Shown: in pieces, positions 1-11,728 of the stretch
How the letters are laid out: each line of letters opens with the position of its first letter
How positions within the stretch are numbered: the stretch's first letter is position 1
Origin: a virus
Taxonomy: Duplodnaviria > Heunggongvirae > Uroviricota > Caudoviricetes
Reading direction: 5' to 3' (one strand)
Length of the DNA: 11,728 bases
Virus record (IMG/VR): IMGVR_UViG_2565956624_000004
Coordinates: 1-11,728 of that record
The notes under the pieces: generated by a model
The model's database searches: none
Told to the model about the DNA's origin: nothing
The model's input: the letters and a program-made list of their open reading frames with translations, nothing else
Program-made: the position numbers and the translations under genes

Positions 1-195
1 TCTCATATCAGGGACTTGTTCGCACCTTCCTTAGCACGTTTCTGTGATGCAGCAGCGAAAGCGCAGGACGCTAACAAGCTGCGTGAAATATTTGGCAAAT
101 GCTGGAAATTACTACCGGAAGGATCGGAACATCGAATCAAGGCAAAAGATGTTTATGACATCCGGGTAGCAGAGCTTAACGGGGAGATGGGTTAA
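1..195 (+). CDS. hypothetical protein, 3' fragment (start lies upstream of window)
   Basis: Frame 1 is open from base 1 to TAA at 193-195 (...DVYDIRVAELNGEMG*). The stop overlaps the ssb ATG as TAATG, implying translational coupling. No recognisable motif in the 64 visible residues. Confidence 0.4.
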   Translation, partial: SHIRDLFAPSLARFCDAAAKAQDANKLREIFGKCWKLLPEGSEHRIKAKDVYDIRVAELNGEMG

Positions 196-656
196 TGAGT
201 TTAAATTCAATCACGCTGGGCGGGAATATCGGTAATGATATGGAGGTTCGCTACACACAAAACGGGAAAGCGATTGGTAGTTTTCCGTTAGCTGTAACGA
301 ATGGCTACGGCGATAATAAGCGGACAATGTGGGTCACTTGCCTGGTATTTGGTGAGCGTGCGGAAAAATTAGCGCCACATATCCGCAAGGGTGGAAAAAT
401 AGTGGTAAGCGGTCGCCTGGATGTTCGGCAATATGACCGGAACGACGGCACGAAGGGAACGGCGGTAGAAGTGGCGGTTAACGAATTTGAATTCATGAAC
501 GTTAACCAACAAGGCCAGCAGCAAGGCCAGCAGCAGAAAGCGCCACCGCCTCAAAATAATAACGGGAATGATGTCCCTCCTGATTTCGATGACGACATCC
601 CATTTGCTCCTATGGGGTTACAATATGGCAAAAGCAGGATCTACGCGCTATCTTGA
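195..656 (+). CDS. ssb: single-stranded DNA-binding protein (SSB, OB-fold) with an atypical C-terminal extension
   Basis: N-terminal OB-fold region closely resembles bacterial/phage SSB (ITLGGNIGNDMEVRYTQNGKAIGSFPLAV...WVTCLVFGERAEKLAPHIRKGGKIVVSGRL). Gln/Gly-rich linker (QQGQQQGQQQ) and acidic motif PPDFDDDIPF are present. The ORF reads 17 codons past DDDIPF before its TGA stop. Confidence 0.9.
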   Translation: MSLNSITLGGNIGNDMEVRYTQNGKAIGSFPLAVTNGYGDNKRTMWVTCLVFGERAEKLAPHIRKGGKIVVSGRLDVRQYDRNDGTKGTAVEVAVNEFEFMNVNQQGQQQGQQQKAPPPQNNNGNDVPPDFDDDIPFAPMGLQYGKSRIYALS

Positions 657-918
657 TGCGCCGCCGATTCCGCGAACAAAAGAGCAAGTTCTAAAAGAAG
701 CCCGTGATCAAATAGATCATGGGCTTTTTTTATGCGGCACGGCAGCGGAACGGATGGCAAAAAGATTTAGTGACCTGTACGCAAAACAAATATGGTTCGA
801 CAACTGGCAGGCAAGTTTTTATCCGCTGCAAAGAAAACCGGATATGCACTGGCCTGAATATGTCGATCCACGTATGCGCAAATATCGCGGGCGTATGGGC
901 CAGGTCATTAATGATTAA
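625..918 (+). CDS. hypothetical protein
   Basis: ORF 568-918 in the track; the first ATG is at 625 (MAKAGSTRYLD...), inside the 3' end of ssb in another frame. No motif recognised. Start is uncertain (568 by the ORF track, 625 by first ATG). Confidence 0.4.
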   Translation: MAKAGSTRYLDAPPIPRTKEQVLKEARDQIDHGLFLCGTAAERMAKRFSDLYAKQIWFDNWQASFYPLQRKPDMHWPEYVDPRMRKYRGRMGQVIND

Positions 919-930
919 TGAGGTGTTATC

Positions 931-1155
931 ATGATTGAAGAAAAAGAAGTAGACAAGGAAATTCCTGACGGTCGTGATGAGCTTATTTGTTTTGACGGCG
1001 GCCTGTATGAGTTCGAAACGTCTGCGGGGTGGCACGATAAATGGCCTAAGCCTACTCGCCAGGAATTAAGCGACCGTAAATCATTCGGCGAAGATGCCGA
1101 ACGGCTGGCTAATAACAAATGGCTTGATAAGTTAATTGCGGAGGGTGGCAAATGA
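931..1155 (+). CDS. hypothetical protein (74 aa)
   Basis: ATG preceded by GAGG-type Shine-Dalgarno; acidic N-terminus; no recognisable domain. Confidence 0.5.
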   Translation: MIEEKEVDKEIPDGRDELICFDGGLYEFETSAGWHDKWPKPTRQELSDRKSFGEDAERLANNKWLDKLIAEGGK

Positions 1156-1265
1156 GCTTTGCAAAAATTGCCGCATTGGCTGCGGCGTTGGCTGTCGCGG
1201 CGCTATATCTTAGCGTATCGCTTTATATTACGGTGGCGATCATCAAGCTGATTACTACTATGTGA
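1152..1265 (+). CDS. small hydrophobic single-pass membrane peptide (37 aa)
   Basis: Not in the ORF track (below size cut-off). Strong SD GGAGGG 6 nt upstream of ATG 1152; ATGA overlap with the preceding stop. Translation MSFAKIAALAAALAVAALYLSVSLYITVAIIKLITTM is almost entirely hydrophobic. Confidence 0.4.
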   Translation: MSFAKIAALAAALAVAALYLSVSLYITVAIIKLITTM

Positions 1266-1273
1266 GGTTAATC

Positions 1274-1393
1274 ATGAAAGTCGGTAAGGATATTGTGACG
1301 GTCGCGTTTTGCATTATTTGCTTCCTGTTTGTGGTTGTTTTTTGTGGCGCACTTGCTGCGGTGGTCAACTTTATTTTCAGTGGGTTGCTGTGA
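1274..1393 (+). CDS. small hydrophobic single-pass membrane peptide (39 aa)
   Basis: Not in the ORF track. SD GTGAGGT 5 nt upstream of ATG 1274. Translation MKVGKDIVTVAFCIICFLFVVVFCGALAAVVNFIFSGLL; its stop overlaps the next ATG (TGATG). Confidence 0.4.
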   Translation: MKVGKDIVTVAFCIICFLFVVVFCGALAAVVNFIFSGLL

Positions 1394-1665
1394 TGAAAAC
1401 GTGGGATGCAAAGGCTGGTGATCTTGTCGTATTGCCTGAATATCGTGATGACCCTGGATTGGTTGTACTGAACAAGATGTGCAACGATCTTGAGCGCCCG
1501 CTATTGGTTAAATATCTGGACGGGGAAATCATAGAGCCACGCTACTTTGATGAGATTGAACTAAAGGCCCGCAATGTTCGCGTTAAGCCGTTCCGGGATT
1601 ATGTTGAAGACCACTGGCGGAAATTGTTCGCCGGACTGAATGGGATGTTTGGCGTATGGCTATAA
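1393..1665 (+). CDS. hypothetical protein (90 aa)
   Basis: In-frame ATG at 1393 within track ORF 1309-1665, coupled to the upstream peptide gene by TGATG; the longer 1309 start would overlap two upstream genes. Confidence 0.5.
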   Translation: MKTWDAKAGDLVVLPEYRDDPGLVVLNKMCNDLERPLLVKYLDGEIIEPRYFDEIELKARNVRVKPFRDYVEDHWRKLFAGLNGMFGVWL

Positions 1666-1847
1666 AATTAGTGAAAGTTAAAGACCTGAAAGGCGGCGAA
1701 AAGATCCGCACGTGGTATGGCTATAAATTTATTGTCGCTGCCTTTTCTTTCGGGCCTGTGGGTCAAGTAACATTATTTGATGAAGAAGATGACGAGGTGG
1801 GTAAATGGCATCTTGAGCAATATGTCGAGGTGTTAAATGAAAATTAA
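1656..1847 (+). CDS. hypothetical protein (63 aa)
   Basis: ORF with a 10-nt overlap with the upstream gene; acidic stretch DEEDDE; no domain recognised. Confidence 0.5.
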   Translation: MAIKLVKVKDLKGGEKIRTWYGYKFIVAAFSFGPVGQVTLFDEEDDEVGKWHLEQYVEVLNEN

Positions 1848-2169
1848 ATTCCATAAAGCATATGATAGCGAAACAAACAAGCTATCACTATTTATTGAAT
1901 TCGAACGCCGGATCGTGGTTGTTCCCTGGGCACGGCGCTTTAATGACGCCGCCGGGCGGCGACAATTCGCGGTCGATATGCTGTTACGCGGTTGCGGCCT
2001 TATGCGCCCGCTATCTGATTTAAAACGGATGATGCCTGGATCGTTCGGTCAGATTGATGAAATAGAAATAAGCCAGGAAGAGCTAAAACGGGCGCGTGAT
2101 TTATTCCTTTCAAGTGAAGGAAACCCGTTCAACCCAGAAACTGAAATGAAATGGCATCATCCACTATAA
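1837..2169 (+). CDS. hypothetical protein (110 aa)
   Basis: ORF overlapping the upstream stop, in the same orientation as its neighbours; no domain recognised. Confidence 0.5.
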   Translation: MKIKFHKAYDSETNKLSLFIEFERRIVVVPWARRFNDAAGRRQFAVDMLLRGCGLMRPLSDLKRMMPGSFGQIDEIEISQEELKRARDLFLSSEGNPFNPETEMKWHHPL

Positions 2170-2181
2170 AGGATAAATATC

Positions 2182-2802
2182 ATGAACGACATCAAAACGG
2201 CTTATTCACTCGGCAGCGAAGGCATGTTAATCACTCGCTACACTGAAGACGCAAGTTTTCATGAAGTAGAAATTAAAGATTATCACGAAGTATTGAAAGA
2301 TATGGAAGCTGGCAAGTATGACGCTGATTTGAATCTGGCGTTACAGATTGTTGATATTGTGATGGATGCAAACATCCGCGATTATGTGTCTTTAAGTGCG
2401 GAAGAAAAAACATCGGTAGCTCGCTATGTCTTCTGTCTTGCTTTCGTAAAACGCATGGAAGAGGAATATGGGCGCGTACCAGTGCCGGAAGATATTGACC
2501 CGCTTGCGTTCGGAAGCGCTGTTATCTTCCCGCTTGATGAAAAACGTATGGGAAGCATTGCGCTGTATTCTATGCGTGGCATGATGAAAAAACTCTTTGA
2601 AGTTAAGGTGATGCAGAAATGTATTGATGAAGGCCACAAAGAGGAAGAAATAAAATTTTTCATGCCATTGCTTTACGTTGAAATGGTCGGCAATGATATG
2701 CGTGCAAATGATCTAGGTGTACAGGCGGCTATTGCGGTGCTTAATGATGCACGGAAAAACTCACAGCCAATGCCTGAACCGGAAAAACGTGTACTGCATT
2801 AA
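2182..2802 (+). CDS. hypothetical protein (206 aa)
   Basis: Long ORF with AAGGA SD upstream; acidic, likely cytoplasmic; no domain recognised. Confidence 0.6.
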   Translation: MNDIKTAYSLGSEGMLITRYTEDASFHEVEIKDYHEVLKDMEAGKYDADLNLALQIVDIVMDANIRDYVSLSAEEKTSVARYVFCLAFVKRMEEEYGRVPVPEDIDPLAFGSAVIFPLDEKRMGSIALYSMRGMMKKLFEVKVMQKCIDEGHKEEEIKFFMPLLYVEMVGNDMRANDLGVQAAIAVLNDARKNSQPMPEPEKRVLH

Positions 2803-2806
2803 CAGC

Positions 2807-2883
2807 GTGATTGCGATCACATAAATATACATTTTGTGTTGTGATCGCGTATCCGTTTTGTAAACCGAAATCAAAAGGTTTAC
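2807..2883. promoter_or_regulatory. putative operator/promoter region: inverted 9-mers GCGATCACA (2813-2821) and TGTGATCGC (2840-2848) flanking an AT-rich spacer, plus hairpin GTAAACC-N10-GGTTTAC (2860-2883)
   Basis: Read directly from the 99-bp intergenic gap between the stop at 2802 and ATG 2902. Both 9-mers contain GATC. No convincing -35/-10 pair could be fixed by eye. Confidence 0.25.
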
Positions 2884-2901
2884 GGCACGGAGGAAAACAA
2901 G

Positions 2902-3120
2902 ATGGCCCGCGAATACATGCTTTATTGCGTTGAGGGTGGCGTAGGCCATGATGCCTACGTCGCCGGGAAAGGCTATCCAGCCGATGAAGTGCTTTCTAAT
3001 ATGCACTTCCGGGAAAATGAAAGCCGGGTGTCTGTGTGGAAACGGTGCATTGATGGTATTGAGGTTGTAAGTATCGAACGGTATTTAGGCACGTTTGATT
3101 ACGGTGTTATTGAGGCTTAA
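2902..3120 (+). CDS. hypothetical protein (72 aa)
   Basis: ORF with GGAGGAAAA SD upstream; first gene after the intergenic gap; no domain recognised. Confidence 0.5.
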   Translation: MAREYMLYCVEGGVGHDAYVAGKGYPADEVLSNMHFRENESRVSVWKRCIDGIEVVSIERYLGTFDYGVIEA

Positions 3121-3218
3121 TTATGGACGACACATTGTTTTATATGTGCTGTTGCTGGGGTTTTATTGCCTTATGCCTGTTTATCAGGTGGTTTATTGAA
3201 TACCATATGAGGTAATGT

Positions 3219-3413
3219 ATGGAACAAGAAACTGATTATCGAATACCTGATAGCCTAAAATTAGTTGGCATTGGTTTCGGGTGTAGATTTGTATCTGACG
3301 CAAAAGGAGCGATTTATTTAATACGTCTTATTGATGGCGTTCAACATATAAGGCGACTAGGAATTTACATCAAAGCATTCAGAAGGGGTTATTTAAAAAC
3401 TCATGAAATTTAA
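3219..3413 (+). CDS. hypothetical protein (64 aa)
   Basis: ORF in the track; AT-rich codon usage differs from its neighbours; no domain recognised. Confidence 0.4.
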   Translation: MEQETDYRIPDSLKLVGIGFGCRFVSDAKGAIYLIRLIDGVQHIRRLGIYIKAFRRGYLKTHEI

Positions 3414-3606
3414 ACATTACATGGAATGGAAAATTCCAGAAGCAGCAACAAAGGCAGCGCCAGGAAATTATTCTGGCGTTTATTTTTATATGGATGGCAA
3501 ATGGTATTTCGGCAGCAGGCCGGATCACTATTATCAGGAAATATGCAAGCCTCACGTATGGGATATTAAAGAGCGCGTGAAAGGCGGGGTAATTGAGGAC
3601 GTTTAA
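3403..3606 (+). CDS. hypothetical protein (67 aa)
   Basis: ORF overlapping the upstream gene by 11 nt; Tyr/Trp-rich; no domain recognised. Confidence 0.45.
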   Translation: MKFKHYMEWKIPEAATKAAPGNYSGVYFYMDGKWYFGSRPDHYYQEICKPHVWDIKERVKGGVIEDV

Positions 3607-3607
3607 A

Positions 3608-3844
3608 ATGCTTAAGAGCTTTTTTAACTGGTTGGGGGCGTGGCTTTTGGCTACGCTTTTTGTTTTCCTGGCGGCCATGACTGTTATCGGTGTTATTATG
3701 CTGGGGGCTATGTTTATTACGTGGTCGCTTCCTGAATTTAACGACATTGGGAATATTCTTTTTGCAGCCCGCGCTTTATTGGCTGTTAGCGCATTCATTG
3801 GTTTTTGCTGGACTGCCGCGCCGGATTGGACTGACACATGGTGA
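3608..3844 (+). CDS. small integral membrane protein (about 2 predicted TM helices)
   Basis: ATG 3608 (track ORF begins at a TTG at 3593), GAGGA SD upstream. Two long hydrophobic segments (WLLATLFVFLAAMTVIGVIMLGAMFI and LFAARALLAVSAFIGFCW). Confidence 0.5.
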   Translation: MLKSFFNWLGAWLLATLFVFLAAMTVIGVIMLGAMFITWSLPEFNDIGNILFAARALLAVSAFIGFCWTAAPDWTDTW

Positions 3845-3848
3845 TCCT

Positions 3849-4082
3849 ATGGCCTTATTCAATATGTCAGAGCCGCAATTTAACGCCGTAAAGACTGCCG
3901 CCCGCGCCGCGCTTTCGGCCTGCAAAGCGGAGGTAGAGAAAAACGGCTACAGCGATAAAGCCACGCGGATGATATTAGATAAGCATTATCGCAAAGTCGC
4001 CCCACTAATCAGCATTGAGCGCTTTGTGTGGTTGGTGGGGTATTTAAACAACCGTTGGGGAACGAAACAGGATTATTTCTAA
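3849..4082 (+). CDS. hypothetical protein (77 aa)
   Basis: In-frame ATG 3849 within track ORF 3690-4082, directly after the upstream stop at 3844; no domain recognised. Confidence 0.45.
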   Translation: MALFNMSEPQFNAVKTAARAALSACKAEVEKNGYSDKATRMILDKHYRKVAPLISIERFVWLVGYLNNRWGTKQDYF

Positions 4083-4091
4083 GGGGGCGTA

Positions 4092-4631
4092 ATGAAAAGT
4101 GATTACGGCGGCAGCCATACGCCGAAAGAAATAAAAGACTTATGGCAAACGCCAAAACCCGTTTTTAGAGGAATGGATCGCGAGTTCGAATTTGTCGCAG
4201 ATGTGGCGGCAAACAGGGAAAACGCGCTCGTTCCTCGGTATATAACTGAAGAAATGGACGCGCTTACTTATCCGTGGGGAGCGGTGGCAATGCCTGGCGA
4301 ATATGTATGGATGAATCCACCATATTCAAACCCAGGTCCATTCGTTGATAAAGCAGCGCTCGAACATCAACGAAATCACATCGGTTGCGTAATGTTATTG
4401 CCCGCTGACGTTTCTGTTAGCTGGTTTATGAACGGCGTTGAGACGGCAAATGAGTGCCGATTAATCACGCGCGGGCGGCTGGCGTTTATCAATGCTGCGA
4501 CTGGTAAGCCAGTAAGCGGAAACAATAAAGGGAGCTTGTTTTTGATCTGGCATCCACGGTGCAGACATGAATGTATTTTCACGCAGATAACACGTAAAGA
4601 GCTATATGCAAGAGGTGCAGATAATGACTAA
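4092..4631 (+). CDS. phage-type DNA N6-adenine methyltransferase (Dam-like, NPPY motif)
   Basis: Translation has N-terminal WQTPKPVF and the catalytic motif IV NPPY (WMNPPYSN). This pattern and the ~180 aa size match the small phage Dam family (T1 Dam-like) as I recall it. Confidence 0.75.
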   Translation: MKSDYGGSHTPKEIKDLWQTPKPVFRGMDREFEFVADVAANRENALVPRYITEEMDALTYPWGAVAMPGEYVWMNPPYSNPGPFVDKAALEHQRNHIGCVMLLPADVSVSWFMNGVETANECRLITRGRLAFINAATGKPVSGNNKGSLFLIWHPRCRHECIFTQITRKELYARGADND

Positions 4632-5109
4632 TGCAGCAGATTTATTACGACTTGCAGCGGAAACAATAGAGCAAAGAGGTAAACAAAACGGTTACGACAG
4701 AAAAGAAGAAAAATCAGCGCCAAAAATAGCCACTATATACAACGCTAAGAAGGGGACAAATTTAACCCCGCTTGATGTATGGGATCTATTAATTTGTCTC
4801 AAGGAGGCGCGTTTAGAGGCCATTTTAGTTAATGAAAGCGATCCTACTGACACTTTGGTTGACTTGATTAGCTACAGCGCACTAAAAGCGGAGCAGATAT
4901 TAAACGATCAGGAGGAAGAACGGAAGAAAAAACAGTTCACTGCCGCCAATATTAATGATGGAATAATAAATGATGCAGCAATAACAAGCTGTAAGGGCTT
5001 GCCTCCTTCAATGCTTAACCCTCAATGTCGTTGTACTACTGATTCGCTTGATTTGAATTTTGACTTCAGTCGGAAGAGGGATAACCAAAATGAAAAAGGT
5101 GACAATTGA
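4624..5109 (+). CDS. hypothetical protein with low-complexity C-terminal half
   Basis: ATG 4624 with SD AGAGGTG 6 nt upstream (track ORF starts at 4606). Overlaps the methyltransferase stop. C-terminal half is N/D/K-rich low complexity. Confidence 0.5.
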   Translation: MTNAADLLRLAAETIEQRGKQNGYDRKEEKSAPKIATIYNAKKGTNLTPLDVWDLLICLKEARLEAILVNESDPTDTLVDLISYSALKAEQILNDQEEERKKKQFTAANINDGIINDAAITSCKGLPPSMLNPQCRCTTDSLDLNFDFSRKRDNQNEKGDN

Positions 5110-5593
5110 CAGGTTACTGGCCTGCGTTTATGTCGCCGTTTTCGTGATCATCAACCTTATTGTTAACCATTGCGGCCCGTGGGTAATTCCGATCACCACG
5201 GTAGCCGCAGTGTGTGTCAATATGATGATCCGCGACTTTCTGTTATATGACGGCGGCCTGAAATGGTCGGCTACAACGTGCGCAGCCGCTGGCGCAATCA
5301 CGGTGCTGATAAACTACGATGCCGGAATGGTGGCGGTCGCGTCATTCGTTGCGGTTGTTTCCGGTGCGCTTATATCTGGCGGCGTTTACCGGGTTTTACC
5401 TGGTGATTTCGATTCCAAACGCTGGCCTGCAAATATAGCTTCAGCCATTGGAGATGCGTTAATTTTTCCCACGCTATCGTTTATGGCATTTATGCCGGAA
5501 ATATCAGCTATGCAATTCATCTCAAAAATGGCAGCGGTAACGGTGATCACTATCATCATGCGCCGCTATTTTACGTTTGAGGGCAGAAAATGA
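5090..5593 (+). CDS. integral membrane protein, possibly VUT/YhhQ-family (queuosine-precursor-transporter-like)
   Basis: ATG 5090 (track ORF starts at TTG 5060). Several hydrophobic helices. The segment IASAIGDALIFPTLSFMAF resembles the conserved C-terminal segment of YhhQ/DUF165 proteins (TASTLFGNVSDTLAFFFIAF) as I recall it. The family assignment is tentative. Confidence 0.45.
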   Translation: MKKVTIDRLLACVYVAVFVIINLIVNHCGPWVIPITTVAAVCVNMMIRDFLLYDGGLKWSATTCAAAGAITVLINYDAGMVAVASFVAVVSGALISGGVYRVLPGDFDSKRWPANIASAIGDALIFPTLSFMAFMPEISAMQFISKMAAVTVITIIMRRYFTFEGRK

Positions 5594-6354
5594 GTGGGCT
5601 TAAAAATTGGGTGGTGTGGTCGCTGTACGACGGCAGCGGGTACGCCGTTAAAGATTGGGCTGACGCTGGCTATAAGTGTTATTGCTTCAACTATGACGGC
5701 GCTAACCACGGCGACTATGAAGGCGTAAAAATCATTCATCCGAATATTGAATACGTTAACGTATGGATTGACAGCCATTTCCTGGTGATGTTCTCCCCTG
5801 ATTTGTCTGTTTATCCAGATCCTGACATTATTCTGGCCTTCCCGCCATGCGACCATCTAGCCGTGTCCGGCGCTCGTTGGTTTGCCAGCAAGCGTGAAAA
5901 AGATCCTGACTTCCAGGTGAAGGCGGCATATAACGCAAAACTGGTAGAAACGCTGGCTGACATGTATCACGTCCCGTGGATGGTGGAAAATCCGGTTGGC
6001 GCACTGTCAACGTTATGGCGTAAGCCGGATTTTATCTTCAACCCGTGCGCTTACGGTGGCTACCTGCCTGAAGATGACAAACATCCTGCCTTCCCGGAAT
6101 ACATCGCCGACCGCGACGCATACACGAAGAAAACTTGTATCTGGTGCGGGAATGGATTTAATCAGCCGCTATTCCTGCCTGTGCCAATGCCTGATGAATG
6201 GGAAGACAGTAAGCAGCACGCTAAGTTAGGAGGAAAGTCGAAACGCACTAAGATGATCCGCTCACTAACGCCGCGTGGCTTTGCCCGTGCTGTATTCCTG
6301 GCTAACGACCGGGCCATCAATCGTACTACGCTCAACCGCGTTTTACCGGACTGA
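5590..6354 (+). CDS. compact DNA (cytosine-5)-methyltransferase-like protein
   Basis: Motifs in canonical C5-MTase order: motif I-like SLYDGSGYA, motif IV FPPCDHLAVSGA (Pro-Cys dipeptide, but PCD instead of PCQ), motif VI MVENPVGAL (ENV-like), motif IX-like RSLTPRGFARAVFL (RxLTPRExARLQGF pattern). At 254 aa it is short for the family. Confidence 0.6.
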   Translation: MSGLKNWVVWSLYDGSGYAVKDWADAGYKCYCFNYDGANHGDYEGVKIIHPNIEYVNVWIDSHFLVMFSPDLSVYPDPDIILAFPPCDHLAVSGARWFASKREKDPDFQVKAAYNAKLVETLADMYHVPWMVENPVGALSTLWRKPDFIFNPCAYGGYLPEDDKHPAFPEYIADRDAYTKKTCIWCGNGFNQPLFLPVPMPDEWEDSKQHAKLGGKSKRTKMIRSLTPRGFARAVFLANDRAINRTTLNRVLPD

Positions 6355-6376
6355 AGTTTACAAAATGGCGTCATTG

Positions 6377-6437
6377 TGTGATACAGGTCACATAATGGCG
6401 CTTTTCGTCTTGTTTACGTGTATCCATTTTGTATACT
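6377..6437 (+). promoter_or_regulatory. putative sigma70-type promoter (-35 TTGTTT 6410-6415, 16-bp spacer, -10 TATACT 6432-6437) with an upstream CRP-like palindrome TGTGA-N6-TCACA (6377-6392)
   Basis: Hexamers and palindrome read directly from the 160-bp gap between the stop at 6354 and ATG 6514. The palindrome matches both half-sites of the CRP consensus and is centred about 60 bp upstream of the predicted start site. Confidence 0.35.
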
Positions 6438-6513
6438 TCAAGCAAACGAAATGCTCTTTAAAAATCCGGCAGCGCTGAAATGCGTAGAAATCACCTTAAA
6501 GGGAGGGAGCATT

Positions 6514-6690
6514 ATGTCTTTTGATAATTACCAATGGCATGACGACTATGAACGAGAAAGCGTCATGCGTGCAATGTGCAATGTATGCAGCACAAAGAAA
6601 GGAGGCTGTAACGAGTGCAACGAATGCTTAGATCATTGGCTAAGGGCCGGACACACCGAAAGGCTGAACGAAACAGAGAATCAAAAATAA
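6514..6690 (+). CDS. small Cys-rich (zinc-ribbon-like) protein, NinF-like
   Basis: ATG 6514 with strong SD GGGAGGGAG upstream (the track's longer 6418 start lacks this). CxxC...CxxCxxC pattern (MCNVCSTKKGGCNECNEC). Sits immediately upstream of ninG as NinF does in lambda; the NinF resemblance is from memory. Confidence 0.45.
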   Translation: MSFDNYQWHDDYERESVMRAMCNVCSTKKGGCNECNECLDHWLRAGHTERLNETENQK

Positions 6691-6704
6691 TAGGGGTGGT
6701 TTTT

Positions 6705-7310
6705 ATGCAGAACCCTAAAAAACCAATAAGACGCCGTTGCAAGTGCTGCGGCGTTTTTTTTGAGCCTAAATATCACAATCAAACGTGGTGCAGTGATGAG
6801 TGTCTGGAAGAGCTGAAGTTTGATCAGCTATGCCGCGACCGTGAGAAGGCTATGAAGGCTATGGAACGGAAGAAACGCCGTGATAGCCAGCGGGAAGAAC
6901 GCAACCGGAAGCGGAAGCAGTTAAATCCGCGTAGTTATTGGTTGAAGCAGGCACAAGCGGTATTTAATGCCTATATCCGCGAACGTGACGCGGGTCAGCC
7001 GTGCATATCATGCGGGACTTACTATTACGAACAATGCGGAGCAGATGCCGGACACTATAGAACGGTTGCCGCCGCCGGGCACCTTCGTTTTAACGAGGAT
7101 AATTGCCACAAACAATGCAGGCACTGCAACCAGACATTAGATGGCAACATAGAAGCATATCGCCCAGCGCTGATTAGGAAAATTGGCCTTGCCAGGGTGG
7201 AAGCGCTGGAGAACAACAACGAAACTCATAAATGGGCGATCGAAGAATGCAAGGAGATCATAAAAGTCTATCAGGCTAAATTGGACGCCTTAAGGAGAAA
7301 GGCAGCATGA
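6705..7310 (+). CDS. ninG: NinG/Rap-family recombination protein (structure-specific endonuclease)
   Basis: In-frame ATG 6705 with SD GGGGTGG. Translation carries NinG hallmarks: N-terminal RRRCKCCGVFF, PRSYWLKQAQ, PCISCG, DAGHYR, LRFNEDNCHKQCRHCN, and C-terminal IEECKEI. Confidence 0.85.
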   Translation: MQNPKKPIRRRCKCCGVFFEPKYHNQTWCSDECLEELKFDQLCRDREKAMKAMERKKRRDSQREERNRKRKQLNPRSYWLKQAQAVFNAYIRERDAGQPCISCGTYYYEQCGADAGHYRTVAAAGHLRFNEDNCHKQCRHCNQTLDGNIEAYRPALIRKIGLARVEALENNNETHKWAIEECKEIIKVYQAKLDALRRKAA

Positions 7311-7708
7311 ATGAATATACTTTTAGCCTGCCTTACCCGCCATCGAACAATAAATATTACCGGCATTCGCGCGGTTTCCACTATATAAGCAAGGAAGGTA
7401 AGGAATACAGGGAGCAGGTAAAAGACATTATAAAACTGCTTAATCTGAAAATTAATCTTAAGTGTAGGCTATCAATAACGGTGTATATTGCACCGCCAGA
7501 TAACAGACGCCGCGATATTGACAATGTAGGGAAGGCATTATTTGACGCTATAACTTATTCCGGTTTTTGGGCTGATGATAGCCAGGTTGACGCAATGAAA
7601 TTTGTCCGCTGCCGGAAGGTAAAAAGAGGGCGATTGTTTATCAAGGTACGCGAACGCGGCGACCTGTTACCGGATATTAACGAATACTTGACTAATATGT
7701 GGTGGTAA
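7307..7708 (+). CDS. rusA: RusA-family Holliday junction resolvase
   Basis: Translation matches RusA along its length: YTFSLPYPPSNNKYYRH, PPDNRRRDIDNVGKALFDAITYSGFWADDSQV, RGRLFIKV. ATGA overlap with ninG. Confidence 0.85.
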   Translation: MNEYTFSLPYPPSNNKYYRHSRGFHYISKEGKEYREQVKDIIKLLNLKINLKCRLSITVYIAPPDNRRRDIDNVGKALFDAITYSGFWADDSQVDAMKFVRCRKVKRGRLFIKVRERGDLLPDINEYLTNMWW

Positions 7709-7710
7709 CA

Positions 7711-7893
7711 ATGAAAAACGAAATTAAAGATCTGCAAATAGATATTCAGCGCGACGAGCGTGATTTAGCCACAGTCCGACAAATTCAGGCTTTTCACATG
7801 CGAGAATTACTTGCACTGAAAGAGTTTGAAAGAAAGCTAGTGCAATCAATATCTGATCGCAAAAGACTGGTTGCACGTTACGGGGGTAAATAA
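7711..7893 (+). CDS. hypothetical coiled-coil protein (60 aa)
   Basis: ATG 7711 three nt after the rusA stop; charged, helical-looking sequence. Occupies the small-ORF slot often found between rusA and Q in lambdoid prophages. Confidence 0.45.
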   Translation: MKNEIKDLQIDIQRDERDLATVRQIQAFHMRELLALKEFERKLVQSISDRKRLVARYGGK

Positions 7894-8615
7894 TGAATTT
7901 GGAATCTATTCTTAAATTCCACTTCCCAAAATCACCGCGTTTGTCAGATGAAAGCCGGGGCACGTCCCCGGATGCGCTTAATACTACGGATGCGCTAACT
8001 GCCGCTGGTATGGCGCAATCGCGCGTAGAGCTTGGTTATAGCGCTTTTCTGGGAAAGATGGAACTATCACAAGCCGAAAAACATAAGGCCGTAGTTTTGC
8101 TTATAGAGCGTTTAAAGGCTATGGCAAAAGATTATGAATACGTTATGGAACTGGACGAGGCTAAACGCAATGATCTCATTATTCTTGTTGCCGTTTTCGC
8201 GTTTCGGGATTATTGCCAGAGTGCCGCGACGGAAAAAACTTGTATGGAGTGCGGCGGATATAAATTTACGTTTGACGAATACGGAGAAAAACACCTTTGC
8301 AAAAAATGCAAGGGGCATGGGAAGGTTCTCAATCATTGTAAACAATGCAAGGGCCGTGGCGAAGTACCGGATAAAGCAGCCAGCGAAGCGGCGGAAATGC
8401 CAGTGTTCAAAACGTGCCAGCATTGCGGCGGGCGCGGGTACTCGCGTTTCCCCGTAGATCTTGTGCGTCAGGCCGTTAATCAGCTTGTTTTTCCGGTAAG
8501 CCGATCAACCTGGTGGAAAAAATACCGGGTTTTCTATGAAGACGCCATAGCGGAGCTATTCAAAGAAGAGGGCCGCGCGGAAAGTGAAATCAAACGAGTG
8601 ACACGGGGTGAATAA
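7893..8615 (+). CDS. putative Q-like antitermination protein with DnaJ-type zinc finger
   Basis: Four CxxCxGxG repeats (CMECGGYK, CKKCKGHG, CKQCKGRG, CQHCGGRG), i.e. a DnaJ CR-type zinc finger. Position directly downstream of ninG-rusA is where Q sits in lambdoid phages. The Q assignment is inference from position plus zinc-binding architecture. Confidence 0.45.
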   Translation: MNLESILKFHFPKSPRLSDESRGTSPDALNTTDALTAAGMAQSRVELGYSAFLGKMELSQAEKHKAVVLLIERLKAMAKDYEYVMELDEAKRNDLIILVAVFAFRDYCQSAATEKTCMECGGYKFTFDEYGEKHLCKKCKGHGKVLNHCKQCKGRGEVPDKAASEAAEMPVFKTCQHCGGRGYSRFPVDLVRQAVNQLVFPVSRSTWWKKYRVFYEDAIAELFKEEGRAESEIKRVTRGE

Positions 8616-8815
8616 TGGATAAGCTGGAAATAAACGATCAGTTTGCCGTTATCTTATTTGAAGATAAAACAGGCGGCGCATGGTGTAAGAAAGTCACTGG
8701 CGCGGAAGCGCGTTTAATATTGGGTATGGCAAGCGCGTTAAATGAAGGCGAATTGCCAGCCATCCCTATTAAGCCTGTCAAAATTTACAAGCGGGGTGAC
8801 GATGATGAAGCCTAA
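8615..8815 (+). CDS. hypothetical protein (66 aa)
   Basis: ORF whose ATG overlaps the upstream stop (TAATG); acidic C-terminus; no domain recognised. Confidence 0.45.
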   Translation: MDKLEINDQFAVILFEDKTGGAWCKKVTGAEARLILGMASALNEGELPAIPIKPVKIYKRGDDDEA

Positions 8816-9074
8816 ACTAAAAGAACATCTATTTGCAAAGCTGGTTAATGACCTGACATTATCCGCGCGGTTGTGCCGTGATACACAACAATTGAGGGCG
8901 TGGATAGCAAGGGATTTAAAAAAATATATTGAGCCTGGCGGGCCGGGTGGCGAAATCACGATGGACGAAGCCATCAAGCGCCGTTCGGCTGAATGGTCAG
9001 TGAGTAACACCGGATTAACCGGATACATTGAAGGCTATAACGACTGTTTACAGGATCATAGCGATGGCAAGTAA
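8805..9074 (+). CDS. hypothetical protein (about 89 aa)
   Basis: In-frame ATG 8805 (alternative 8802) with SD GGGGTG 6 nt upstream, within track ORF 8742-9074; no domain recognised. Confidence 0.45.
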   Translation: MKPKLKEHLFAKLVNDLTLSARLCRDTQQLRAWIARDLKKYIEPGGPGGEITMDEAIKRRSAEWSVSNTGLTGYIEGYNDCLQDHSDGK

Positions 9075-9375
9075 AGACCTGCATTTGAATCTGAAAGGGG
9101 AATATTTCCACGCCATATGGACTGGAAAGAAGGTGGAGGAATACCGGCTTTATAATGACTATTGGCGTAAACGTCTGGAAGGGCGGGAATATGAACGCCT
9201 GATTATTAAATGGGGATACCCTGCCAACCACGAAAAACACAGGATTATTAACCTTCCTTATTTTGGGTACGAAGTAAAAACTATCACTCATCCATTATTC
9301 GGCCCTGATCCTGTTAAGGTATTCGCAATTAAATGTGACAGAAATTGGATGTTGAGAGGTGAAAATGAAAAGTAA
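9064..9375 (+). CDS. putative ASCH/PUA-like domain protein
   Basis: In-frame ATG 9064 with AGGA 8 nt upstream. N-terminal pattern LNLKGEYFHAIWTGKKVEEYR resembles the ASCH signature (hydrophobic strand, then G-K-K-x-x-E-x-R). Tentative. Confidence 0.4.
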   Translation: MASKDLHLNLKGEYFHAIWTGKKVEEYRLYNDYWRKRLEGREYERLIIKWGYPANHEKHRIINLPYFGYEVKTITHPLFGPDPVKVFAIKCDRNWMLRGENEK

Positions 9376-9580
9376 CCGCAAGCGCCTTGTAAGGGCGTAC
9401 GACAAAGCATTAAAGGCTTTTGATGATCTGCGACACAATAAACGCCAGCGCCGCAAATGGGCGCGTATGCTTGTTTATGAGTGGCATTATTCTGATGCTT
9501 TTATGGAAAGCGCACCGCTATTAACACAAGAACAAGCCGACGAAGTGGCTAACGATAACGTTTATTATATGATGTGGTGA
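9365..9580 (+). CDS. hypothetical protein, paralog A of a tandem pair
   Basis: ATG 9365 (track ORF starts at GTG 9359). MKSNRKRLVRAYDKALKAFDDL... ends ...DNVYYMMW. Clearly homologous to the next gene. Confidence 0.5.
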   Translation: MKSNRKRLVRAYDKALKAFDDLRHNKRQRRKWARMLVYEWHYSDAFMESAPLLTQEQADEVANDNVYYMMW

Positions 9581-9584
9581 CAAT

Positions 9585-9806
9585 ATGAAAAGTAACCGTA
9601 AGCGCATGATAAGAGCATATGATAAAGCGTTAATGGAATTTGACATACTACCACGCAGCAAGCGCCACCGCCGCCAATTTGCGAGATATATTTTTCATAT
9701 ATGGCACGATGCTGATTTCTTTTTTGATGCCAGATATATAACACAGGAAGATGCTGATAATATAGCTTACGATAACGTTTACTACATAATGAGTGAGTGT
9801 AATTAA
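9585..9806 (+). CDS. hypothetical protein, paralog B of a tandem pair
   Basis: MKSNRKRMIRAYDKALMEFDIL...DNVYYIMSECN; N- and C-termini conserved with paralog A, central region diverged. Confidence 0.5.
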   Translation: MKSNRKRMIRAYDKALMEFDILPRSKRHRRQFARYIFHIWHDADFFFDARYITQEDADNIAYDNVYYIMSECN

Positions 9807-9807
9807 T

Positions 9808-10173
9808 ATGCAAATAATCATTGATTACCTTTGCCACGCTGTAAATACTCTTTTTGGTTTTTATCAACAACCATTCCTCAAAGAATGGGACGAAATGCTT
9901 AATGACATCATTGATAAAGGGTTAATAGTTGAGGTTGGCAAGCTAACGATAAAATTTAATTACGAAGGCAAAGAATATGAAATATGGGTAGGTAATAGAT
10001 GGTACTCATACGGGCATATTTATTCAATTGGCGGCAAATACATTAAACGTAGCCAGGAGTTCAGGCCGCGATTCCGCACAATGCGCCGCCTGCGTGACCT
10101 GCATATGAATATATTTGAAAATCAGGAAGCGTGTGAACTATTCAAGATCTACGGGGATAAATCATGGAGCTAA
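9808..10173 (+). CDS. hypothetical protein (121 aa)
   Basis: ATG 9808 two nt after the upstream stop (track ORF starts at GTG 9793); no domain recognised. Confidence 0.5.
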   Translation: MQIIIDYLCHAVNTLFGFYQQPFLKEWDEMLNDIIDKGLIVEVGKLTIKFNYEGKEYEIWVGNRWYSYGHIYSIGGKYIKRSQEFRPRFRTMRRLRDLHMNIFENQEACELFKIYGDKSWS

Positions 10174-10394
10174 AAATCTGGCAGGCTATTGACGTGGTTG
10201 ATAATGAATTGTCTATGTTCGCCACTAACGGGAAACGCGTTGTGATCGCTACATGGACACGTAACCATGATGATATTGCTTTTCGTCGCAAGGCTGCGGA
10301 ATGGCTTTTCTCAGATGGCGGCTACACGATGAACATCGCACAGCTTGCCAGAATGAAAGATGAAAAGCTGGTGGACAGCTACACAACTGCGTAA
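10164..10394 (+). CDS. hypothetical protein (76 aa)
   Basis: ORF overlapping the upstream gene by 10 nt; no domain recognised. Confidence 0.45.
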   Translation: MELKIWQAIDVVDNELSMFATNGKRVVIATWTRNHDDIAFRRKAAEWLFSDGGYTMNIAQLARMKDEKLVDSYTTA

Positions 10395-10404
10395 TGGGGT
10401 GAAT

Positions 10405-10635
10405 ATGCGTATCTATGAACACAAGCGGGATAAAACCCGCTTTTTTGTTCGTGCTGGCGTGGCGTACCAGTATCACGAATGCGGTTACATTGAGGCGCTT
10501 GCTTACGATCTGGATTTTGAGCAAGAAAAGGCATGGTTCGATTTTAAAATTTACCGGAAGCGCAAACCAACACGCGACGAGCGCCACGCTATCCGGGACT
10601 TTTTAATCAGTATTGAGCGCTGGGGGACAGATTAA
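10405..10635 (+). CDS. hypothetical protein (76 aa)
   Basis: In-frame ATG 10405 with GGGGTG upstream, within track ORF 10360-10635; basic protein; no domain recognised. Confidence 0.4.
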   Translation: MRIYEHKRDKTRFFVRAGVAYQYHECGYIEALAYDLDFEQEKAWFDFKIYRKRKPTRDERHAIRDFLISIERWGTD

Positions 10636-10862
10636 TGAAAGTAAAATTCTTGCACGATCACGGTTATCCGTCATTGAAACAGGTTGTTGGTAAGGTGGTT
10701 GACGTCGTTCATAGTGATAATGTCACTTGCATGATTAACGGTGCTGACCTAATTGCCGCTGGCGCTGATGATCATTACATTAATCCTGCATGGTCGTATA
10801 CGTTCAGCCTGGGAGACTTCGTTGGCGACAAGGGGCGCGGGCTGGAAGTGGTCGAGGGTTAA
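10635..10862 (+). CDS. hypothetical protein (75 aa)
   Basis: TAATG overlap with the upstream gene; no domain recognised. Confidence 0.45.
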   Translation: MKVKFLHDHGYPSLKQVVGKVVDVVHSDNVTCMINGADLIAAGADDHYINPAWSYTFSLGDFVGDKGRGLEVVEG

Positions 10863-10866
10863 CATC

Positions 10867-11115
10867 ATGGACGTTTACGAAGATCTATACCTCCATACAG
10901 ACATAAACACTTTTTATTTTCTTAAAAACGGCGTCGTGTATCGCAGTGACGACGGGGTGATAATGAAAGAGTGGTTATTTAAGCGTAAAGACCTACTCGA
11001 CGATCTGGTTTTTGCCGGGATATTTCGTAAACGTCCGGCTAACCTGGAAGAAGAAATGTTGATAGAGGTATATCAAAATGAAAATCAGGGTAAGTTATTT
11101 CCGGGCGAAAGATAA
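10867..11115 (+). CDS. hypothetical protein (82 aa)
   Basis: In-frame ATG 10867 within track ORF 10753-11115, 4 nt after the upstream stop; no domain recognised. Confidence 0.45.
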   Translation: MDVYEDLYLHTDINTFYFLKNGVVYRSDDGVIMKEWLFKRKDLLDDLVFAGIFRKRPANLEEEMLIEVYQNENQGKLFPGER

Positions 11116-11329
11116 GGCAACGGGAAAGCAGATGGCGATCCTGGTTAACGAGGCGCAGTACATGTTTGTCCTTCAGCCGTGGTGTGTTGTAGACCTTAAC
11201 GACAATTGCCGCCGTCACGCTGCGCGGAGCGCTGTAGGCATGAAAGGATGGCAGCCGCGCGACATGGAAAACTATTGTGAATGGAAATTGGTGGCAAAAT
11301 ACACGGTAGACTATAAAGGGGTTTTCTGA
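11078..11329 (+). CDS. hypothetical protein (83 aa; alternative start 11132)
   Basis: ATG 11078 has GAGGT 8 nt upstream but overlaps the preceding gene by 38 nt. An internal ATG at 11132 would avoid the overlap. Two CxxC-like pairs (CVVDLNDNC, and one Cys in ENYCEWK). Confidence 0.4.
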   Translation: MKIRVSYFRAKDKATGKQMAILVNEAQYMFVLQPWCVVDLNDNCRRHAARSAVGMKGWQPRDMENYCEWKLVAKYTVDYKGVF

Positions 11330-11586
11330 TGGAACATTTATATTTTAATGTAATTCAGACTCGCGATCTCGACAAATTCAAAGACGGTAAGGTTTATTGC
11401 GGGGTTCAGATTTACGGTGCGCCTGGTGGTGATGGTGCAATGGCTATAACTGGCGATGATGGTAAGTTATATTTTGCTTATGCAAGCCATATCAATAACG
11501 CCTCTGGCTTGTATATTTATCGCATCGTGCATGATTTCCGTGAGATCGCTGTACTTCATGCTCGCGAAGGTAGTAAACCGGAATAA
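11329..11586 (+). CDS. hypothetical protein (85 aa)
   Basis: ATG overlapping the upstream stop (TGATG); Gly-rich segment GAPGGDGAMAITGDDG; no domain recognised. Confidence 0.45.
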   Translation: MEHLYFNVIQTRDLDKFKDGKVYCGVQIYGAPGGDGAMAITGDDGKLYFAYASHINNASGLYIYRIVHDFREIAVLHAREGSKPE

Positions 11587-11612
11587 ATGTGATCTACCAC
11601 ACAAAGTTTACG

Positions 11613-11640
11613 AAATGGCATTGTTTAGGCAGTGCCATTT
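11613..11640. promoter_or_regulatory. inverted repeat AAATGGCA-N12-TGCCATTT in a 96-bp intergenic gap (operator, weak terminator or RNA hairpin)
   Basis: Read directly; 8-bp perfect arms with a 12-nt loop, followed by TTGTTACATATAAG, which contains -10-like hexamers. Only a short T run follows the stem, so a strong intrinsic terminator is not supported. Confidence 0.2.
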
Positions 11641-11682
11641 TGTTACATATAAGCCACGGAAAGACGAATGGGAGGTAAGAAG

Positions 11683-11728
11683 ATGAACGCTAACGCTAAG
11701 GAAGGTGCGAATAAGCGGGGAAATTCTT
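11683..11728 (+). CDS. hypothetical protein, 5' fragment (continues beyond window)
   Basis: ATG 11683 with strong SD GGGAGGT 6 nt upstream; MNANAKEGANKRGNS... open to the window end. Confidence 0.35.
   Translation, partial: MNANAKEGANKRGNS

Follow-up and report, generated by a model that had tools for sequence, protein, structure and literature searches.

We examine a four-gene block at positions 4092-6354 of an 11,728-nucleotide stretch of viral DNA (IMG/VR record IMGVR_UViG_2565956624_000004, positions 1 to 11,728; the whole stretch is referred to as the window) and find that its third gene encodes a predicted short, divergent homologue of the VUT/YhhQ family of membrane transporters. Characterised VUT/YhhQ members import preQ0, preQ1 or queuine. 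In the phage-specific subfamily of short VUT proteins to which this homologue would belong, the transporter gene and an adjoining gene for a DpdA-like DNA-guanine transglycosylase normally form what we interpret as a cassette to import a base and insert it into DNA. No such partner is found in the phage DNA that we read around the block, and the transporter gene is the most strongly constrained of the four. The explanation that we favour, with about even confidence, is that the protein is a functional 7-deazaguanine importer that has been decoupled from modification of phage DNA. The window itself, judged from sequence identity, comes from a temperate coliphage of the mEp021 (mEpimmI) group that resides in E. 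coli as a prophage.

Results

The membrane protein is a predicted divergent VUT/YhhQ homologue

The initial annotation, made from the sequence letters, described the third gene as a multi-pass membrane protein with VUT/YhhQ-like features and proposed searching positions 5090-5593 directly against the VUT family profile. Searched in this way, the protein has no Pfam or NCBIfam match at E ≤ 0.1. PHROGs place it in phrog_4899, a family with no annotated function, and a word-indexed protein search returns just 12 close relatives. A profile search run exhaustively over 1.84 billion representatives (E ≤ 0.001, with the window protein and its orthologues as query) yields 258 relatives, and 93 of the 96 that were scanned match Vut_1 (PF02592), with retrieval E-values of 1e-17 to 1e-7. 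Six relatives checked individually score 37-50 bits against the Vut_1 cutoff of 27.2; P0009, a syntenic orthologue that is 55% identical to the window protein and is encoded on the divergent contig L049, reaches 20.8 bits (E 5e-4), below that cutoff.

Comparison of a deep alignment of these relatives with E. coli YhhQ using hhalign gives a probability of 93.8% (E 1.7e-7 over 140 columns), so the VUT/YhhQ homology on which the initial annotation had staked its reading is indeed found by profile comparison. The depth of the alignment is needed for this: a shallow alignment of the orthologues gave an insignificant 0.6%. A tblastn search finds phage proteins that carry the annotation 'VUT family protein' and share 35% identity with the window protein (E 1e-19). 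In the AlphaFold2 (AF2) model, six helices cover residues 2-166 at a moderate pLDDT of 66.8, the hydropathy peaks fit six helices, and the record of phage mEp021 lists six transmembrane segments for its counterpart. A Foldseek search of this model against viral structures gave nothing better than E 0.68, and single-sequence PDB searches of three of the block's proteins gave no match. Residues of the family core are kept throughout (N22, R48-D49, an A-x-A-S motif, N115, D122, F126-P127, F131, Q142 and K146). The assignment to the VUT/YhhQ family thus comes through transitive and profile evidence and not through a direct family match.

It is useful to set the protein beside YhhQ (COG1738, PF02592), the preQ0/preQ1 importer of E. 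coli. Both are multi-helix proteins predicted for the inner membrane, and they share an Asn in helix 1, the motif A-x-A-S-F and the pattern S/A-x-x-x-D-(S/T/A)-x-x-F...AF. The window protein is shorter (167 against 221 residues), is about 20% identical and does not have the loop insertions of YhhQ; in addition, its gene belongs to a phage and shares an operon with methyltransferase genes, and the Pfam model misses the protein.

Several of the relatives are fusions. In P0224 (locus L060, 121-957) a QueF-like domain is fused N-terminally to a short VUT domain, with both parts above their Pfam cutoffs, and this fusion ties the subfamily to preQ0/preQ1 metabolism. Seven relatives of about 300 residues (P0151, P0158, P0159, P0162, P0174, P0205 and P0272) carry, after the VUT domain, a beta-rich C-terminal domain with a signal-like hydrophobic stretch at its start and an aromatic residue at its end. 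Each looks like an inner-membrane importer joined to a domain resembling an outer-membrane barrel. DUF5020 is matched by 3 of the 96 scanned relatives.

Relatives of the transporter adjoin a DpdA-like gene

The short-VUT subfamily occupies more than 536 confirmed loci in viral contigs, and we clustered the neighbouring open reading frames of 80 of these, 79 of which have a complete VUT reading frame. A neighbour of about 245 residues is present in 78 of these 79 loci, a count that is not an unbiased frequency because the 80 loci all come from one related subclade, at 59-98% identity to the sequence that opens the query alignment. In 69 loci this neighbour lies directly upstream of the VUT gene, on the same strand and within 20 nucleotides of it. 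The neighbour belongs to phrog_887, 'queuine tRNA-ribosyltransferase' (E 4e-68), carries the sequence IDNGAFS, which on inspection is reminiscent of the active-site motif of TGT, and comes from a family that includes a protein of Salmonella phage 7-11; we assign it as a putative DpdA-like DNA-guanine transglycosylase.

The same pairing is seen in cultured phages, where VUT and DpdA-like genes are neighbours in no fewer than 11 of the 15 phages outside the mEp set that have a short VUT. In PEAT2 the existing annotation already places a 'VUT family protein' (gp18/gp19 being the pair) next to a 'queuine tRNA-ribosyltransferase'. In Opt-719, Tunavirus LHE71, RCIP0319 and Enterobacter phage Phc, the transporter is followed by a gene that carries just the label 'hypothetical' and matches the hidden Markov model (HMM) of the DpdA-like cluster with E-values of 1e-57 to 1e-64 (Table 1), such that these Drexlerviridae may modify their own DNA with 7-deazaguanine. 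The earliest description of a preQ0/preQ1 transporter encoded by a phage is for Pantoea phage Vid5, where the gene lies within a que-tgt cluster (PMC6266253). A survey in 2019 found that phage VUT/YhhQ homologues do not correlate with any one group of the phages that encode such 7-deazaguanine genes (PMC6884629). The link between phage VUT homologues and 7-deazaguanine DNA modification that the initial annotation had invoked is therefore upheld, both by Vid5 and by the DpdA-like gene in the sampled loci.

The VUT proteins of all these pairs (Vid5 included) fall in the same short-VUT subfamily as the window protein (32-36% identity, tblastn E 1e-19 to 6e-8), and their genes lie in early or DNA-metabolism regions as the block does. 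The difference is in the partner. In the pairs the DpdA-like gene overlaps or abuts the transporter gene, whereas the mEp021 group has none; Vid5 in addition carries Que genes (PMC6266253), and none were found in the mEp021-group reading frames that were scanned.

No partner gene is found in the mEp021-group DNA that was read

With filters switched off and a threshold as loose as E ≤ 10, the HMM of the DpdA-like cluster finds no match in the six-frame reading frames of the window. The same search is negative in the divergent contig L049, in 45 related viral contigs, in positions 1-50000 of mEp021 and in 42 kb of an identical prophage on an E. coli chromosome. Scanned against Pfam and PHROG, the prophage's large unassigned reading frames yield replication and nuclease proteins, with no match to PF01702, PF20314, phrog_887, TGT, DUF6610 or Que families. 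No DpdA or Que gene is annotated in the prophage or in the mEp021 record, and neither the annotations nor the reading frames that were scanned (the large unassigned ones and part of the small ones) contain a Que or FolE gene; the transporter homologue itself could be a source of precursor. The initial annotation had noted that the window holds no DpdA/TGT-like or preQ0-synthesis gene and had supposed that a partner enzyme might lie elsewhere; the absence extends to the rest of the phage DNA that was read.

In a neighbour-joining tree, the window protein, P0009, P0133 and P0138 form one clade (99% bootstrap), which we refer to as the orphan clade. It is sister to the DpdA-coupled clade of Drexlerviridae, with 96% support for the joint node, and because of this position the loss of DpdA appears to be derived. 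P0133 and P0138 also have no adjacent DpdA gene within the 14-16 kb of contig read, and among the contexts of the orphan clade that we compared (the window, L050 and L057) no shared partner gene was found.

These phages can be seen as the mirror image of the 'DpdA-only' phages, the third group of Hutinet et al. 2019, to which Salmonella phage 7-11 belongs (PMC6884629). Phages of that group use a precursor made by the host or imported, in place of preQ0 synthesis by the phage (PMC6884629): there the transglycosylase is kept and the transporter may be lacking, whereas here the transporter is kept and the transglycosylase is absent.

The transporter gene is under the strongest constraint of the block

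The transporter gene is intact and full length in all 46 related loci. Its median ratio of nonsynonymous to synonymous substitution rates (dN/dS) is 0.046, the lowest of the four genes; the ratio is 0.062 for the gene of the Dam-type methyltransferase (computed across 44 related loci), 0.080 for the C5-methyltransferase-like gene and 0.27 for the DUF6378 gene, the fastest to evolve. Synonymous divergence of the transporter gene reaches a dS of 0.39 within this set, and in L049, where synonymous sites are saturated, the protein is still full length and recognisable at 55% identity. With the gene intact in every locus and its dN/dS below that of the other three, we judge that it is not a relic.

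The last gene of the block behaves differently. In about 8 of 44 related loci the C5-like gene is frameshifted, deleted or replaced (Table 1), yet each of these loci has an intact transporter. In L004 and L013, the two of them whose reading frames were listed, the transporter is followed by a 175-residue protein (6501-7028 in both) with the same ATGA overlap; its sequence, judged by eye, resembles that of an HNH-AP2 homing endonuclease. The Dam, DUF6378 and VUT genes are a constant core, and the last slot is variable. In the other direction, no Dam, DUF6378 or C5-like gene adjoins VUT in the 80 DpdA-VUT loci, and for this reason we consider the linkage of VUT with methyltransferases to be specific to this lineage. 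The initial annotation had presented the block as one DNA-modification module in which two methyltransferases bracket the transporter; since the C5-like gene is so often lost or broken, the bracketing is not obligatory, and a single module in which the transporter serves the methyltransferases does not fit a C5-like gene that is broken or replaced beside an intact transporter.

One apparent deletion within the core was seen. P0010, a protein of 115 residues on 7 contigs, matches Dam (PF05869), and its residues 33-114 match the transporter's C-terminal half. This would be a chimera of a Dam N-terminus and a VUT C-terminus, produced by a deletion of DUF6378 and half of the VUT gene.

Layout of the block and its other genes

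The four open reading frames are confirmed, all on the + strand and in agreement with the RefSeq gene calls of the identical E. coli prophage, and successive genes overlap by 8, 20 and 4 nucleotides, the last overlap being an ATGA at the VUT stop, so the description of four coupled genes in the initial annotation holds. Its start at 5090 for the membrane protein is consistent with the RefSeq annotation and with alignments of homologues; 4606 and 5060, starts given in the list of open reading frames, are upstream alternatives. Three E. coli chromosome records match the 2263 nucleotides of the block at 100% identity, and seven cultured phages (mEp010, mEp013, mEp021, mEp044, mEp515, mEp554 and MagusPhagus) do so at 86-90%; the block is found in 35 of 5426 complete E. 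coli genomes and on 45 IMG/VR contigs. The divergent contig L049 carries it as well, with protein identities of 54-65%. From this recurrence, in cultured phages, E. coli genomes, IMG/VR contigs and L049, it follows that the arrangement is not due to chance.

In the identical chromosome the block sits in the rightward early region, after genes for ERF and SSB proteins and before NinG, RusA and the antiterminator Q, and the annotation of mEp021 has the same gene order. The block ends at a strong hairpin with a T-run, at 6367-6402, resembling an intrinsic terminator (Table 1 gives the whole feature as 6367..6412), and the mEp021 record has an annotated terminator, TERM_4, at the matching relative position. 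A nutR2 site has been placed downstream of the C5-like gene in mEp021 (PMC11893012). No promoter-like site stands out, and an Rfam scan of the window finds no riboswitch and no other RNA family.

The two outer genes differ in how directly their families can be recognised. The first protein is confirmed as the Dam-like N6-adenine methyltransferase, with its NPPY motif, of the initial annotation: it matches PF05869 with 177.7 bits (E 2.1e-52, cutoff 28.1) and TIGR01712 phage_N6A_met with 144.5 bits (cutoff 97), it falls in phrog_111, and RefSeq uses the same name. Among orphan phage methyltransferases (the T1/P1-type Dam enzymes of PF05869) it is a full-score member. For the fourth, the initial annotation proposed a C5-methyltransferase-like enzyme and a profile search of 5590-6354, which turns out negative for the protein itself (no Pfam match, PF00145 included, and no NCBIfam match at E ≤ 0.1) and positive for its homologues, as PF00145 is matched by 9 of 26 sequences that are 53-87% identical to it (best E 1.3e-6). 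The protein also matches phrog_757, 'DNA methyltransferase' (E 6e-88), so that the description as C5-methyltransferase-like stands, and it has 2612 homologues, mostly from phages, some of which are named DNA cytosine methyltransferase. It can thus be placed among the small phage C5 enzymes of phrog_757 as a member too divergent to be caught by PF00145 directly.

In the alignment of the 26 sequences, G15 and S16 of motif I, P86 and C87 of motif IV, and E133, N134 and P135 of motif VI are invariant. A profile of the family, searched against PDB, has DNMT3B and M.HaeIII as its sole matches, and these are weak (E ~0.13), spanning motifs I-IV. An hhalign comparison of the family with E. coli Dcm was set aside, having given 1.1% with the Pro-Cys motif alone aligned. 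Only about 85 residues separate the ENV-like segment from a segment resembling motif IX, which would leave little room for a target-recognition domain. We think that 'C5-methyltransferase-like' is a fair description of this gene product, with activity and specificity putative. In Phc (L145, 37-726, - strand) and in LHE71 (L143, 2172-2905, - strand), a distance of about 4-5 kb separates homologues of it (47-55% identical) from the VUT-DpdA pair, the gene in LHE71 being split into two frames; the C5-like and VUT families thus share early regions in Drexlerviridae without adjoining.

The second protein matches PF19905 with 32.8 bits (cutoff 27.1) over residues 13-96, in a conserved helical N-terminal domain of roughly residues 1-98 with four predicted helices. 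Its C-terminal tail (window positions 4921-5109) is hypervariable, with many indels among homologues that are otherwise 65-90% identical, and overlaps the start of the transporter gene; the orthologue in L049 has only 99 residues, and the tail is absent from it. Against PDB, a single-sequence search with this protein finds nothing and a profile search gives chance-level matches only, and its AF2 model is unusable (pLDDT 46). A neighbour in L057 that looks MazG-like was compared with it by BLAST, and the result (E 0.39) is not significant and is not relied on.

Further downstream, the antiterminator Q homologue (7893-8615) combines an Antiterm domain with a DnaJ-type CXXCXGXG zinc-finger segment (PF00684, E 6.5e-6). 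Beyond it lie two adjacent 73-residue reading frames (9359-9580 and 9585-9806) that are clear paralogues, starting MK(M)KSNRKR..RAYDKAL and ending ..DNVYY.M, which amounts to a tandem duplication of a small basic protein.

Table 1. Positions of features in the window and of selected features in related loci (locus handles are given where positions refer to another record).
Feature	Position or locus	Strand	Basis or remark
Dam-type N6-adenine methyltransferase (predicted), 179 aa	4092..4631	+	PF05869, TIGR01712, phrog_111, RefSeq
NPPY catalytic motif of the Dam-type enzyme, aa 75-78	4314..4325	+	translation
DUF6378 protein, 161 aa	4624..5109	+	PF19905
Short VUT/YhhQ-family membrane transporter homologue (predicted), 167 aa, six predicted helices	5090..5593	+	profile homology
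Small C5-cytosine-methyltransferase-like protein, 254 aa	5590..6354	+	phrog_757, homologues with PF00145
C5-like motif I, LYDGSGY	5623-5643	+	
FPPCDH, Pro-Cys motif (C5-methyltransferase motif IV), presumed catalytic Cys	5839..5856	+	
C5-like ENV-like motif, ENPVG	5986-6000	+	
Intrinsic-terminator-like hairpin (16 bp stem, 4-nt loop) and T-run, end of block	6367..6412	+	
C5-like gene frameshifted	L007, L035		
C5-like gene without residues 46-154, including both catalytic motifs	L041, L042, L044		
C5-like gene reduced to a remnant	L013		
C5-like gene absent	L004, L039		
VUT, then DpdA-like 'hypothetical' entry	L141 5474-6301 (Opt-719); L143 5477-6304 (LHE71); L144 5474-6301 (RCIP0319); L145 5476-6297 (Phc)		T1-like and related coliphages

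Discussion

In the explanation that we favour, the block would be the distal part of the early lytic operon of a mEp021-group temperate coliphage, and its outer genes would encode orphan DNA methyltransferases that methylate replicating phage DNA against restriction, a role suggested by their families. The transporter would descend from an ancestral short-VUT/DpdA cassette from which the transglycosylase was lost in the mEp021 lineage, with the slot after the transporter now taken by the C5-like gene or, in some relatives, by a gene for an HNH endonuclease. The transporter would still carry a 7-deazaguanine base through the inner membrane while the phage grows lytically (the timing being suggested by the position in the operon), and since there is no phage transglycosylase, the imported base could serve host enzymes only, that is, the host Tgt/queuosine-tRNA pathway or, where present, a host Dpd system. 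The identities of the genes, the VUT homology, the linkage to DpdA among relatives, its absence here and the pattern of selection are what the analysis shows; substrate, direction of transport, time of expression and beneficiary are the parts of this account that we infer.

Several observations weigh against this explanation. The window protein has no direct Pfam or NCBIfam match, its structural model is of moderate quality (pLDDT 67) with an uninformative fold search, and the pairing with DpdA was counted in a single related subclade. At several well-conserved positions, members of the orphan clade have residues other than those of most relatives. Examples are Asn in place of Asp in the '..DL..RD' motif of helix 2 and TT in place of NA before that motif, and such substitutions could signify a changed substrate. 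We had considered the Asp-to-Asn change as a signature of neofunctionalisation and give it little weight, because the same column varies among DpdA-linked relatives. DpdA subfamilies are very divergent and a cryptic DpdA is possible. Finally, E. coli has its own YhhQ and a complete de novo pathway to preQ1, so that an extra importer looks redundant.

The strongest competitor, which we regard as unlikely without being far-fetched, is that the protein of the orphan clade has been repurposed, either to carry another substrate or to act as a membrane effector, for instance in superinfection exclusion or on the host envelope. Four sampled members without an adjacent DpdA form a distinct clade (99% bootstrap), they have substitutions in common where most relatives are conserved, the window protein is no longer matched by Pfam, and the gene contexts of the members differ with no common partner family, all of which a change of function would accommodate. 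It fits less well with the core VUT residues being kept, with several of the seemingly lost features being absent also from the DpdA-coupled sister clade of Drexlerviridae, and with a very low dN/dS along the whole length, which is what a conserved transport fold would give. That the gene is instead a functionless relic of a VUT-DpdA cassette, carried along passively, is close to untenable: the loss of DpdA is derived and the rare P0010 chimera indicates that deletions do occur, but the pattern of selection (46 of 46 loci intact, a dN/dS of 0.046 and full length in L049) effectively refutes it.

Two further explanations keep the transporter in the service of phage DNA. We see a slim prospect that the phage DNA does receive 7-deazaguanine, through a base-exchange enzyme that has escaped recognition. 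DUF6378 is the obvious candidate, as its gene lies directly upstream of the transporter, where most relatives have DpdA, and the 20-nucleotide overlap couples the two genes in translation; the DUF6378 gene is present in 46 of 46 loci, within the constant Dam-DUF6378-VUT core beside a variable C5-like gene, the protein has no assigned function and no PDB relative, and very divergent new DpdA subfamilies have been discovered repeatedly (PMC10516641). Yet a helical domain of about 98 residues is far from the TIM-barrel fold of TGT, the gene evolves fastest of the four (dN/dS 0.27), and it is absent from the 80 DpdA-VUT loci and from the orphan-clade contexts L050 and L057. Moreover, all viruses known to have these modifications encode DpdA (PMC10516641), and DNA of the mEp021 group has been cut by NdeI for restriction fragment length polymorphism analysis and sequenced routinely (PMC11893012), although the latter is weak evidence. 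The module of the initial annotation, with the transporter supplying the methyltransferases or some undescribed chemistry, is very unlikely. The tight overlaps and the same order in the window, in cultured mEp021-group phages and in L049 speak for it, whereas the C5-like gene is broken, absent or replaced in about 8 of 44 loci where the transporter is intact, none of the three other genes accompanies VUT in the 80 other loci, and both methyltransferases use S-adenosylmethionine, which the cell makes. We know of no VUT member that carries S-adenosylmethionine.

The gene families, the phage group and the existence of phage-borne VUT genes were known. What is new here is the assignment of the 'putative membrane protein' of the mEp021 group to VUT, the near-universal pairing with DpdA within the sampled part of the short-VUT subfamily, and a well-conserved sister clade that appears to have lost its DpdA partner. 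In practical terms, this gives a functional label to genes of the mEp021 group annotated as 'hypothetical' or 'putative membrane protein', and it flags VUT-DpdA pairs in T1-like coliphages, where 'hypothetical' is the sole annotation of the DpdA-like gene and, in many cases, of its VUT neighbour.

Phage homologues of VUT/YhhQ have so far been read as suppliers of precursor for DpdA-based DNA modification. Here a sister clade without DpdA keeps its transporter under the strongest constraint of the operon, in a group of coliphages reported to be prevalent in the human gut. We give only a small chance to the proposal that phages use imported 7-deazapurines independently of DpdA, be it to boost queuosine in host tRNA in favour of translation of the phage, or through a new DNA-modifying enzyme, for which DUF6378, encoded ahead of the transporter throughout this lineage, would be the candidate. 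The finding poses, in a tractable phage system of E. coli K-12 in which mEp021 gp32 is the orthologue of the transporter, the question of what a phage would gain from importing queuosine precursors that it does not use in its own DNA.

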